DNA from: Escherichia coli
GTDB taxonomy: Bacteria > Pseudomonadota > Gammaproteobacteria > Enterobacterales > Enterobacteriaceae
Length of the DNA: 64,000 nucleotides
Strand: one strand, 5' to 3'
NCBI RefSeq assembly: GCF_041886205.1
Contig: NZ_CP169030.1
In this document: positions 22,021 through 24,372 of the stretch, piece after piece
Position numbering within the stretch: the stretch's first letter is position 1
Layout of the letters: every line of letters begins with the position of its first letter
The notes under the pieces: model-generated
Database searches by the model: none
Told to the model about the DNA's origin: nothing
What the model saw: only the letters and a program-made list of their open reading frames with translations
Translations under genes and position numbers: made by a program

Positions 22021-22209
22021 ATGACAGATAATGAAAAAATAGACCTGATGATAAAAGAGATAAAATCTGTTATTTTAAAAAGGACGGGAGAAGATAGCAA
22101 GGTAAGTATTGTAGAAATTGATGGTTGCAGGCGTATAAATATTTTAATAGATAACATATCAAGTTATCTAATTAAATTTTCAGAGCATCAAAACAACCAA
22201 ATCACATAA
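22021..22209 (+). CDS. hypothetical protein (62 aa)
   Basis: ORF only, AT-rich island. Confidence 0.2.
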   Translation: MTDNEKIDLMIKEIKSVILKRTGEDSKVSIVEIDGCRRINILIDNISSYLIKFSEHQNNQIT

Positions 22210-22216
22210 TTATAAG

Positions 22217-22819
22217 ATGTATTGTATAAATACTGATTGCACATATACAAAGATTGCAATAGAGCAGCTACTGCACGAAAAGTATTTTGATGACAGGCGT
22301 TATTGCCATAGTATTAAGATCTATGATTTAAGGTTTTTTAAAATAGAGGATGTTGCCTACAAATTAATACAGTTATTTAAGGAGAGAAGAAAAGAAAATA
22401 TAATATTTCTCTGTTCCGATAGGTTTATACACAGCAAAGAAAAACCAAGAAACATTTTTTTTCTGGATACAAAAGATAGCATACGCAACTGGAGTAGACA
22501 TTTAAAAAAACTTCGTTATTGTAATAGTAACTTGCTTATATGCTTTTTATTTTTATGTGGCCTCTACCATATATCTGTATTTACAGGAAAAAAACAGGTG
22601 ATTATTGCCTGTATAAAAAAAGGATTTTCTTTTGCTGAAATTGTGAATTTTCTTAACATTAATGCGAGAACATTAGTTAATTATCTTGGGGGGCTTACAA
22701 CTTATTTTATTCTTCCATATAGTGATTCTTTATATAAATATATTATAGATAATATTATAGCATCATCTACCGAAGAGTATCATATTCTTTTGACAAATCA
22801 AAGGAGATATTATGTTTAA
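22217..22819 (+). CDS. putative transcriptional regulator with LuxR/GerE-like C-terminal HTH
   Basis: 200 aa; weak HTH-like segment KGFSFAEIVNFLNINARTLVNYLGGL. Confidence 0.4.
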   Translation: MYCINTDCTYTKIAIEQLLHEKYFDDRRYCHSIKIYDLRFFKIEDVAYKLIQLFKERRKENIIFLCSDRFIHSKEKPRNIFFLDTKDSIRNWSRHLKKLRYCNSNLLICFLFLCGLYHISVFTGKKQVIIACIKKGFSFAEIVNFLNINARTLVNYLGGLTTYFILPYSDSLYKYIIDNIIASSTEEYHILLTNQRRYYV

Positions 22820-23225
22820 TAGGCGCGTCTTATTTCTGTCTGTTTTTTCCTGTGCTGTATTCATGTTATCAGGTTGTTCATCTAATAGATTTGCCTCCAG
22901 GGATGCAAATGCTACGTATGTTAATACGCAGCTAAAAATAATACCTCGATCCCAGGAGAAAATACAAGCTCAATCACAATGCTCAAGGAGCTTTTCGCTA
23001 CTGCAAAAATTAAACACGGATAAGTTTAGCATGTATAGAAATCAGTTCGATGAGATAAATGATGCATACTTTTTTTATAAAAGAAATGTTGATTTAATGA
23101 ATAAAGACTCTAAAGAGTTAATGGCAAGCGTTCTTGATTCTAAACTAGATATGGTATGTGTACGAGTTGATAACGCCTCATTTGTAGGTATTTATGGGAA
23201 AATGAAAAAAGTTATGGACTTATAA
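22812..23225 (+). CDS. lipoprotein (paralog A)
   Basis: 137 aa; lipobox LSGC; AGGAGA Shine-Dalgarno upstream; C-terminal LMNKDSKELMASVLDSKLDMVCVRVDNASF shared with paralog B. Confidence 0.5.
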   Translation: MFNRRVLFLSVFSCAVFMLSGCSSNRFASRDANATYVNTQLKIIPRSQEKIQAQSQCSRSFSLLQKLNTDKFSMYRNQFDEINDAYFFYKRNVDLMNKDSKELMASVLDSKLDMVCVRVDNASFVGIYGKMKKVMDL

Positions 23226-23399
23226 ACAGGAATGAGGGCTTACTGCCCTCATTATCAATTTATGTTATTTTGGATCGCATCACTGTGTTGGTTTTCTCTA
23301 ATTGTGTTATGGGGGACTGGATTTTATTCATTGCTCTTTTATATCATTTCTGTATTACTGATAATCATTTTATATACTTTATATTTTATTGGAGAGAAT

Positions 23400-23795
23400 A
23401 TGTTTTCTAAAGGAAAAATAAAGGAAAGTGATTCGACCACGACAATTATTTCAAAAAATACTTCGTTTGTTGGCGATATTAGTTCTGGTGAAAAAATAAT
23501 AATTCACGGAAAAATTAATGGTAATATAAATACTAACAATGGTGTGGTATTTATTGATAAAGGAGGAGTTGTTAATGGTAGGGTTTTATGTGAAAAAATG
23601 ATTTTAAATGGTGAATTGTATGGTGAATGCTGTTGCTCCACGTTAGATGTTTATGAAAATGGTTTTTTACAAGGAGAAGTTAGCTATCGATTTCTGGAGA
23701 TTCGCAATGGCGGATGTATTACAGGGATTGTAAACAAGGTGACTGACGAAGTGCAAAACAATGTATCTGAGTTAGTAAAAGCGAGAGAAAGTTAA
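23400..23795 (+). CDS. bactofilin (CcmA-like polymer-forming protein)
   Basis: Beta-helical repeat pattern ([30 protein letters not shown]...) typical of bactofilin domain; start chosen at ATG 23400 preceded by GGAGAG; longer ORF from 23232 would add a hydrophobic N-terminus. Confidence 0.55.
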
Positions 23796-23949
23796 AAATA
23801 TGAAATTCGAGAATGTTATCTTACTCCTTGTTCTTGTCATTATGTTTTATTTTGTAATAACAAATTTAATTGAAGCGAATGATTACTACAAAGAAATACA
23901 TGTATATTCCGATGTATACAAGTGATTACATTTAATGTAATGATTACGT

Positions 23950-24372
23950 GTGGATAATATGATGATTATATTTCGATATTTAATTATTATTATTTTAAGC
24001 GTATACATGACAGGGTGTACTAATAATAATTTAAAGAAAGAAGATATCCCCGAAGATATGTTCGCAATAATTTATGGTTCGGATAGCATAAAAAAATATG
24101 AACACGGACAGATGGAGCTTACAAAAAATATCAACAGTGGATGTATTGAAGCCTTGGTTTTTTTAAGTGAAGAGGACCCCGAGAAATATAGCGATTATAT
24201 AAATGATTATCATAAAATTGCAGAGGGGTATCGTTTTCTTGATGATAACAGAACATTCATGAATAAAGATTCAATTGAATTATTGGTAAGAGGGTTAAAT
24301 GTTAAAAAGGATGTCCTCTGCTCAAGAGTAAAGTTTGAAAGCTTTCAGCACCTTAAAAACAAATTCCAATAA
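23950..24372 (+). CDS. lipoprotein (paralog B)
   Basis: 140 aa; lipobox MTGC; C-terminal region paralogous to 22812-23225 product. Confidence 0.5.
   Translation: MDNMMIIFRYLIIIILSVYMTGCTNNNLKKEDIPEDMFAIIYGSDSIKKYEHGQMELTKNINSGCIEALVFLSEEDPEKYSDYINDYHKIAEGYRFLDDNRTFMNKDSIELLVRGLNVKKDVLCSRVKFESFQHLKNKFQ

Follow-up and report, generated by a model that had tools for sequence, protein, structure and literature searches.

A conserved operon of the F plasmid encoding a predicted transmembrane bactofilin and two YuaE-family lipoproteins

The F plasmid of Escherichia coli carries a short operon in which the gene for a bactofilin lies between the genes for two small predicted lipoproteins of the YuaE family. 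It is described here from positions 22,021–24,372 of a 64,000-nucleotide (nt) stretch of E. coli DNA (contig NZ_CP169030.1 of assembly GCF_041886205.1); this whole stretch is referred to as the window, and positions given without a further label are counted in it. The cluster is a real, conserved operon of the F plasmid that is already annotated, and its placement within the AT-rich “surface island” of F, as a conserved accessory operon, is well supported. By its predicted architecture, the bactofilin is a new member of the known transmembrane CcmA-type subclass. The lipoproteins recur in other Enterobacterales beside large type V adhesins, and the reading tentatively preferred below is that the whole module serves such an adhesin.

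Origin and conservation of the operon

The cluster has a GC content of 0.30 against about 0.50 in the flanks, in agreement with the AT-rich cluster recorded in a first-pass annotation of the window, which had been made from the sequence alone. All its open reading frames (ORFs) lie on the plus strand and are closely packed, at the positions collected in Table 1. Comparison with the classic F plasmid of E. coli K-12 (NC_002483.1, positions 11571–14872) gives 99.8–100% identity, so that the locus is indeed plasmid-borne, as supposed in that annotation. Its further remark that such an arrangement was not a recognisable one does not stand, since the cluster is present in the classic F plasmid and in common F+ and F′ laboratory strains, and its parts already bear names in RefSeq: “bactofilin family protein” (in older records “polymer-forming cytoskeletal protein”), “hypothetical protein” and, in the newest records, “YuaE family lipoprotein”. 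The alignment of F with the window reveals the same island with three differences: in the window, the IS3 copy is inverted, IS2 is missing, and an additional insertion sequence (IS) of the IS3 family sits within a gene resembling pdeL.

The cluster has been found in 54 of 5426 complete E. coli genomes (~1%), many of which belong to laboratory F+, F′ or Hfr (high-frequency recombination) strains; XL1-Blue, JM109, TG1 and NEB5-alpha F′Iq are among the carriers. YuaE matches occur on about 110 of 72,556 plasmids (~0.15%), about 89 of these being the close E. coli/Shigella form, and the bactofilin is encoded on 91 plasmids, all from E. coli or Shigella except for two weak matches in Klebsiella. 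In the collections searched, the bactofilin of E. coli is found exclusively in the F-type cluster, either on a plasmid or in an F integrated into the chromosome; the chromosomal places with a bactofilin number 14, F-carrying laboratory strains included. To our knowledge, E. coli K-12 is generally held to possess no bactofilin of its own. Literature searches combining bactofilin with the F plasmid, or directed to the yua genes, to lipoproteins adjoining inverse autotransporters and to the EAL-domain gene of F, have found no publication on the cluster.

Diverged versions of the operon exist on other E. coli plasmids, with bactofilin identities of 86%, 76%, 75% and 63%, and the gene order is kept in them. 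Pairwise ratios of nonsynonymous to synonymous substitution rates (dN/dS) for all six genes lie between 0.03 and 0.38, at dS values of 0.24–1.8 that bring synonymous sites near saturation; therefore, the six ORFs are real genes under purifying selection. The gene for YuaE is the most constrained of the cluster (0.03–0.05), and the ratios amount to 0.07–0.16 for the YuaC-like gene, 0.08–0.21 for orf200, 0.08–0.35 for orf62 and 0.30–0.37 for orf41; for the bactofilin, they are 0.22–0.38 in the part encoding the membrane hairpin described below and 0.12–0.19 in the core.

A GC-rich hairpin in the intercistronic region between the YuaE and bactofilin genes is kept as well, its stem changes being compensatory, in each of the seven variants examined, namely the window and the loci numbered here L002, L006, L022, L025, L026 and L030. 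This hairpin may attenuate transcription between the two cistrons, stabilise the transcript or control translation. In the whole region, there are five terminator-like sites against 1.0 expected from shuffled sequences, including one ahead of the first gene and one behind the YuaC-like gene.

The encoded proteins

The longest ORF of the bactofilin gene (23232–23795) encodes 187 amino acids (aa), and its product matches the Pfam family Bactofilin (PF04519) with an E-value of 7.9e-19 at residues 71–166, covering model positions 1–96 of 98; the hidden Markov model search thus bears out the bactofilin assignment made at first sight. The family profile also aligns to residues 40–132 of the Caulobacter crescentus BacA structure (2N3D) with an E-value of 0.0079. 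The first-pass annotation had placed the start of the protein at ATG 23400, behind a GGAGAG ribosome-binding site. Both elements exist, the GGAGAG at 23391–23396, but a conserved membrane hairpin is encoded in frame further upstream, and the sequence comparisons make 23262 the probable start. Counted from the latter, hydropathy predicts two hydrophobic helices within residues 1–49, which precede the bactofilin domain in the same frame. No stop interrupts the frame of the hairpin in any of the five E. coli variants, the most distant of which has 63% protein identity, nor in Citrobacter-type bactofilins, which are only 35% identical. The start common to all variants is the Met of MLFW/MFFW, corresponding to 23262 in the window; the alternative ATG 23232 sits within the intercistronic hairpin site and is unavailable in one variant. 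Since lysines follow the second helix and the short loop between the helices has no charges, the positive-inside rule predicts a cytoplasmic bactofilin domain, with the hairpin in the inner membrane.

Directly after the hairpin, from the internal Met encoded by ATG 23400, the protein reads MFSKGKIK, where M57 and F58 are invariant in all variants; this sequence fits the membrane-targeting consensus of bactofilins, MFSKKKK (PMC12448750). About 3% of bactofilins, mostly from gammaproteobacteria, have N-terminal transmembrane helices, and CcmA of Proteus mirabilis occurs both as a full-length integral form and as a shorter peripheral form that starts with MFSRKTE (PMC12448750). Because the GGAG ahead of the internal ATG is retained in four of the five variants, and because the layout is CcmA-like, it is plausible that the F bactofilin would likewise exist in two forms, a static integral one and a peripheral one, generated by the internal start or by a processing site. 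The gene is presumably yuaD, as judged from the alphabetical order of the F genes. A weak resemblance has been noticed between helix 1 of the bactofilin's membrane hairpin (the hairpin being encoded at 23262–23399) and the free-standing 66-aa product of orf66, a small gene of the same island (16513–16713): the two share FWI..W..IV.W over 16 residues with a pairwise E-value of 0.002, which may be compositional.

The product of the first lipoprotein gene, YuaE, starts with a signal peptide composed of a basic n-region, a hydrophobic core and the lipobox LSGC, and its gene overlaps the stop of orf200 by 8 nt. In the YuaC-like protein, the lipobox is MTGC, which with its Met at −3 is near-canonical with respect to the pattern [LVI][ASTVI][GAS]C. 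The lipobox cysteine is invariant in a 12-member alignment of the family. Thus, both products had been rightly taken for lipoproteins, in the sense of predicted lipidation. They had also been taken for paralogues that share a conserved C-terminal segment; the paralogy is real, but the similarity (31% identity) is not limited to that segment and runs along the whole length, with two further cysteines being invariant (Cys57 and Cys116 in YuaE). An AlphaFold model of YuaE represents a three-helix bundle (mean predicted local distance difference test score, pLDDT, of 74; about 88 in the core) with the conserved cysteines on helices 1 and 3. Fold searches with this model have returned from AFDB only enterobacterial lipoprotein family members without characterisation, one of them named YuaE, and from the PDB just generic helical bundles with E-values above 0.8. 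The Pfam family PF27278, “YuaE”, is precomputed on homologues 94–100% identical and on both paralogues in variant loci, and a local Pfam scan of the two lipoproteins, with a library version that does not contain PF27278, gave no match. In one source, a relative of YuaE is named “YuaC family protein”.

In E. coli, the sorting of lipoproteins by the Lol system is governed by Asp at position +2 after the lipidated cysteine. No member of the 12-member alignment has Asp at this position; therefore, the YuaE-family lipoproteins are predicted to be anchored in the outer membrane, facing the periplasm. The family is rare, with 105 clusters at 50% identity in a set of 1.84 billion representatives; all the clusters that have been traced belong to Enterobacterales.

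The remaining three proteins are less telling. For orf62, no family match exists in NCBIfam, PADLOC or PHROGs. Protein orf200 is found in E. coli only, always with a length of 200 aa, at identities of 62–100%. It had been put forward as a LuxR-like regulator, which the sequence and profile searches do not support: there is no Pfam match even at an E-value of 10 and none in NCBIfam, nothing significant among PDB sequences (best E-value 0.22; best match to a regulator 0.28), and hhalign of the orf200 profile against the LuxR-type helix-turn-helix (HTH) of the PdeL-like protein yields a probability of 0.3%. The AlphaFold2 model is of low confidence (pLDDT 48), and although the top 50 Foldseek matches are mostly LuxR/FixJ proteins, all have E-values above 0.1 and TM values of about 0.2, i.e., they are non-significant. 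The identification as a LuxR regulator has accordingly not been upheld, and what is left of the label is a weak hint at best, drawn from that model. Residues 104–125 of orf200 (22526–22591) form a strongly conserved hydrophobic stretch, NLLICFLFLCGLYHISVF; it might form either a membrane helix or a helix buried in the core, which bears on the idea of a soluble regulator. The small membrane protein orf41 ends in an acidic C-terminal tail of 19 aa, predicted to be periplasmic. When orf62, orf200, YuaE, orf41 and the YuaC-like protein were checked against NCBIfam, Pfam, PHROGs and PADLOC for a known fimbrial or secretion accessory locus, no significant match to a curated family was obtained.

Linkage to type V adhesins

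As had been pointed out in the first-pass annotation, autotransporter genes neighbour the cluster: two lie upstream in the window, the nearer being of the YchA type (a name taken from PMC9997739). In the window and in F, an IS block splits the ancestral island between this autotransporter and the cluster. Locus L024 has no IS at the matching site, and there the island is contiguous, with an autotransporter 88% identical to that of the window, followed in order by orf90, orf66, orf231, orf62, orf200, YuaE, bactofilin, orf41, YuaC-like and PdeL-like genes.

The same linkage is seen at a much greater evolutionary distance. In the Citrobacter-type loci (L026/L027 and L030), an autotransporter with 51% identity is directly followed by YuaE (71–78%); then come a transmembrane bactofilin with 35% identity, a membrane protein of 42 aa and a YuaC-like protein with 41%. 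The 42-aa protein stands at the position of orf41, and in L026 its equivalence is judged by position and hydrophobicity, there being no detectable sequence similarity. These loci contain no orf62, orf200 or PdeL-like gene, and after the core they continue with unrelated genes, namely one for an AraC regulator and hlyCABD. Thus, the core of the system consists of YuaE, the bactofilin, the small membrane protein and YuaC, with the autotransporter as its constant neighbour.

Outside this lineage, YuaE-family genes have no bactofilin partner, and the lipoprotein family keeps company with another class of type V adhesins. In nine of 12 contexts beyond the E. coli cluster, not all of which are independent, a gene for a giant inverse autotransporter is situated directly downstream of a YuaE-family gene, on the same strand and at a distance of 27–510 nt. 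The nine are a chromosome and a plasmid of Morganella, a Providencia plasmid, a Kosakonia chromosome, an Enterobacter plasmid, Proteus myxofaciens and three Arsenophonus genomes. Two Arsenophonus loci have a second YuaE paralogue behind the adhesin, and in Providencia, in Proteus and on the Morganella plasmid such a copy precedes the pair on the other strand; a gene for a small HTH regulator is often located upstream of the pair. Inverse autotransporters are represented by a handful of genes per genome, so that the adjacency is far beyond chance. A scan of a genome collection with the YuaE alignment, which used a single peptide pattern and returned four loci, does not amount to a census. In the literature found on inverse autotransporters, there is no mention of such an adjoining lipoprotein. 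The Salmonella protein SinI, encoded beside SinH, has been considered as a counterpart of YuaE and ruled out, being an immunoglobulin (Ig)-domain protein (PMC4943183).

One more locus, L031/L032 (about 8438–9124), at first resembled an independent context with an autotransporter, YuaE and a LuxR-type gene, and is in fact a deletion-fused, decayed copy of the same island. It comprises the autotransporter, an orf62-like gene (55% identical to orf62), YuaE and a remnant of the N-terminal core of the bactofilin fused to the PdeL-like HTH, and orf200 is deleted.

Table 1. Positions of the features described, in the window unless a locus number is given
Feature	Position	Strand	Remarks
Omptin-family outer-membrane protease (OmpP of F)	4345..5292	−	Upstream of the autotransporters
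Second autotransporter, AIDA/MisL-like C-terminal part	5941..10128	+	Upstream of the cluster
YchA-type classical autotransporter, 1769 aa	10762..16071	+	Autotransporter barrel TIGR01414, E 2e-88
orf90, orf66 (two membrane helices), orf231 (polytopic membrane protein)	16118..17512	+	Between the autotransporter and the cluster; same order in L024
IS block, IS3 and IS66-family remnant	18198..21177		Splits the ancestral island in the window and in F
Terminator-like GC hairpin with T-run	21986..22002	+	Lies 18 nt ahead of orf62, where a very AT-rich intergenic stretch of ~650 nt ends
orf62, small soluble protein	22021..22209	+	ORF of 62 aa; first operon gene
orf200, 200 aa	22217..22819	+	Conserved hydrophobic segment at residues 104–125
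YuaE lipoprotein, 137 aa	22812..23225	+	LSGC lipobox, Cys22, Ser at +2; AAGGAG Shine–Dalgarno sequence
GC-rich hairpin, 9 base pairs	23231..23253	+	Between the YuaE stop and the bactofilin start, about 10 nt before the start
CcmA-type bactofilin, probably YuaD	23262..23795	+	PF04519; two-helix membrane hairpin, MFSKGK at the internal ATG 23400, beta-helix domain
orf41, single-pass small membrane protein	23800..23925	+	Starts 4 nt past the bactofilin stop
YuaC-like lipoprotein	23959..24372	+	MTGC lipobox, Thr at +2; alternative GTG start 23950 (140-aa ORF)
Terminator-like hairpin	24432..24458	+	Between the YuaC-like and PdeL-like genes
PdeL-like gene, 5′ part, LuxR-type HTH	24482..24701	+	Truncated by IS insertion
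IS3-family insertion sequence	24702..26008	−	From ORFs; breakpoints from the alignment of F with the window; not in F here
PdeL-like gene, 3′ part, degenerate EAL domain	26009..26856	+	Copy in F aligned to PdeL (7PK5)
YuaE-like genes before inverse autotransporters	L009, L010/L011, L014/L015, L016–L019, L028, L029; about 6001–6474 or 10001–10414 per locus		

Downstream of the operon, the PdeL-like gene is split in the window after about codon 73 by the IS3-family element, and it is intact in F (L001, 11083–12144; 353 aa). The intact protein is homologous to PdeL over the full length, with its LuxR-type HTH and EAL domain (structure 7PK5, residues 5–345, E-value 4.4e-50). It had been read as a PdeL-like enzyme of cyclic di-GMP metabolism; the homology holds, but besides the gene being broken by the IS in the window, the catalytic residues are replaced. 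In a residue alignment to PdeL, the EAL signatures EVL, ELTE, DDFG and EGVE are changed to DVT, QFST, NDFG and DGIE, and single positions from R to A and from Q to K; therefore, phosphodiesterase activity is unlikely, and the PdeL paralogue is probably a degenerate EAL-domain regulator.

The entire AT-rich island codes for surface proteins, OmpP and the autotransporters included. Gene orf231 (16817–17512) travels with variants of the cluster at 55–87% identity (L002, 10402–11121; L024, 2919–3608), and in L002 it is located downstream of a partial cluster. Beyond the F-like island, at 29538–30710, 41756–43333, 50969–52903 and 55050–58016, the window contains genes for an IS21 transposase, a methyl-accepting chemotaxis protein, tet(M) and a Tn3-family transposase; thus, the plasmid is a relative of F with an added resistance/transposon region.

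Possible function, alternatives and known systems

What the operon does can be approached mainly through its neighbours. The first-pass annotation had guessed at a module for surface organisation or localisation, and the synteny evidence now fits this idea, since YuaE stands directly before an inverse autotransporter in most of the contexts outside E. coli and the core follows a YchA-type autotransporter in the Citrobacter-type loci. We therefore prefer, as the best placed of several readings and still as a tentative one, that the module serves a large type V adhesin, which here would be the upstream YchA-type autotransporter. According to this proposal, the two-helix hairpin would insert the bactofilin into the inner membrane with its beta-helical polymerising domain in the cytoplasm, and the polymer would label, from the cytoplasmic side, the membrane patch at which export of the adhesin precursor takes place. 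On the periplasmic side, the two YuaE-family lipoproteins would serve the adhesin as dedicated helpers, in the insertion of its barrel, the secretion of its passenger or its anchoring, and orf62, orf200 and the PdeL paralogue may control the expression of an otherwise silent AT-rich island. In the window itself, the PdeL paralogue is inactivated by the IS, and IS elements part the cluster from the autotransporter. Polar secretion has been reported for classical autotransporters, with targeting that starts in the cytoplasm.

Several points weigh against this proposal. There is no obvious physical link between a cytoplasmic polymer at the inner membrane and lipoproteins of the outer membrane; the periplasmic loop of the hairpin has only a few residues and the tail of orf41 has 19. 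The inverse-autotransporter loci all lack a bactofilin, i.e., the lipoproteins can do without it, and in three of the 12 contexts (Citrobacter portucalensis, Rahnella, Obesumbacterium) the YuaE-family gene is solitary. Adjacency in IncF plasmids alone is weak evidence, as plasmid accessory islands often collect surface genes, and the prevalence among complete E. coli genomes is low, about 1%. Finally, the cluster tends to decay: the lipoproteins are lost in L002, apparent frameshifts are present in L006, L031 is deletion-fused, the PdeL-like gene of the window is split, and one historical K-12 F plasmid is devoid of the entire region (PMC9997739).

A wider version of the proposal would make the YuaE family a set of hitherto unrecognised, dedicated accessory factors for giant type V adhesins, classical and inverse autotransporters alike, across Enterobacterales, with the bactofilin of the IncF and Citrobacter versions acting as a landmark that sets the site of adhesin secretion; put in such general terms, it is somewhat doubtful.

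An unlikely alternative is that the operon is a cell-shape or cell-wall module independent of any adhesin, in which the membrane-anchored polymer would locally tune the synthesis or hydrolysis of peptidoglycan and the lipoproteins would regulate wall enzymes from the periplasm. Outer-membrane lipoproteins of E. coli, LpoA/LpoB and NlpI, are well known to regulate wall enzymes. However, neither the cluster nor its variants encode a peptidoglycan enzyme (no M23 peptidase, penicillin-binding protein or amidase), and the YuaE family tracks adhesin genes rather than those of wall enzymes. Moreover, no difference in shape between F+ and F− laboratory strains is known, which counts against this view. 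Support for it comes from the bactofilin itself, whose architecture is that of P. mirabilis CcmA, a protein affecting cell shape and swarming (PMC12448750), and from the examples of bactofilins acting with cell-wall enzymes (PMC12448750, PMC10945521).

It is quite unlikely that the operon constitutes an envelope-sensing relay, where the lipoproteins would signal contact with a surface or the condition of the adhesin, and the bactofilin with orf41 would sequester or release orf62, orf200 and the PdeL paralogue as cytoplasmic regulators of the island. Up to three candidate regulators do lie beside the core, one of which, the PdeL paralogue, combines a LuxR-type HTH with a degenerate and possibly sensory EAL domain. 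Small regulators of the HTH/LuxR type also accompany YuaE-like genes in Morganella and Providencia, as does a gene of the response-regulator type in Kosakonia, and bactofilins are able to scaffold cytoplasmic partners, e.g., in Myxococcus xanthus (PMC5703909). Yet orf200 is not demonstrably DNA-binding, the Citrobacter-type loci keep the four-gene core without any of the three candidates, and the hairpin and orf41 would expose only very short segments to the periplasm.

Inert cargo is an equally poor prospect. On this account, the island would be a silenced and decaying remnant from another enterobacterium that hitch-hikes on IncF plasmids without benefit to their present hosts, and it would represent just an annotated hypothetical operon of F. 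The AT-rich composition is typical of silenced foreign DNA, IS elements have inserted around and inside the cluster, partial or rearranged copies occur, the region has been lost from one historical K-12 F plasmid (PMC9997739), and the cluster is present in no more than 54 of 5426 complete E. coli genomes and ~0.15% of plasmids. Strong purifying selection on six genes whose synonymous sites are near saturation does not agree with such a fate, nor does the preservation of the gene order and of the intercistronic hairpin down to 35% bactofilin identity, or the existence of intact copies in several diverged lineages.

Anti-phage defence or plasmid exclusion by a membrane polymer is highly improbable: islands of conjugative plasmids often hold defence systems, and several of the proteins are small and membrane-bound, but no cluster protein has a significant match in PADLOC or PHROGs, on which ground a defence-system or phage origin has been rejected, and no nuclease, ATPase or other effector-like enzymatic domain is detected with Pfam and NCBIfam.

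If the wider version of the adhesin proposal is true, no earlier bactofilin would be known to be dedicated to secreting proteins or placing adhesins, and this one would be carried by many standard laboratory strains. Through the F-carrying strains, the transmembrane class of bactofilins becomes directly testable by E. coli genetics. The recurrent pairing of YuaE with type V adhesins suggests that an accessory component is still lacking from the picture of how autotransporters and inverse autotransporters are made or regulated, and it is relevant to the way in which Morganella, Providencia, Proteus, Kosakonia and E. coli adhere, form biofilms and colonise. As far as could be found, neither the pairing of the YuaE family with a bactofilin nor its recurrent linkage to type V adhesins has been described earlier.

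Among known systems, the closest in layout is CcmA of P. mirabilis (Hay et al. 1999, as summarised in PMC12448750), likewise gammaproteobacterial, with N-terminal transmembrane segments and an embedded MFS(K/R) motif where a shorter form would begin; the likeness is one of architecture. Unlike CcmA, which is chromosomal, the F bactofilin is plasmid-borne; its gene has those of two YuaE-family lipoproteins and of a small membrane protein around it, and it is linked to an autotransporter. With the pairs BacA–PbpC of C. crescentus and BacA–LmdC of H. neptunium (LmdC being an M23 peptidase), and with CcmA–Csd5/Csd7 of H. pylori, the F system has in common the beta-helix domain, an MFSK-type motif and co-encoded membrane or envelope proteins as likely partners. 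It differs from them in that its partners are predicted to be helical lipoproteins rather than peptidoglycan enzymes, and also in the extra transmembrane hairpin and in the linkage to type V adhesins.

The PdeL-like protein shares its two-domain architecture, over the full length, with PdeL (YahA) of E. coli K-12, a LuxR-HTH and EAL protein that is both a phosphodiesterase and a transcription factor, whereas in the paralogue the key catalytic and metal-binding positions are replaced, and its gene in the window is split by an IS.

For the YuaE family, the nearest parallel is provided by SadB, a lipoprotein reportedly described by Grin and colleagues in 2014 as a helper of the trimeric autotransporter SadA in Salmonella. 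No relationship in sequence or fold has been detected between the two, the modelled YuaE being a three-helix bundle with one disulphide pair; the adhesins concerned are of types Va and Ve, not Vc, and the YuaE family is predicted to be sorted to the outer membrane, which is listed as a further difference. SadB is also a small lipoprotein encoded beside a large type V adhesin in enterobacteria, with a proposed role in bringing that adhesin to the surface, and by analogy it may be regarded as the closest functional counterpart of the YuaE family.

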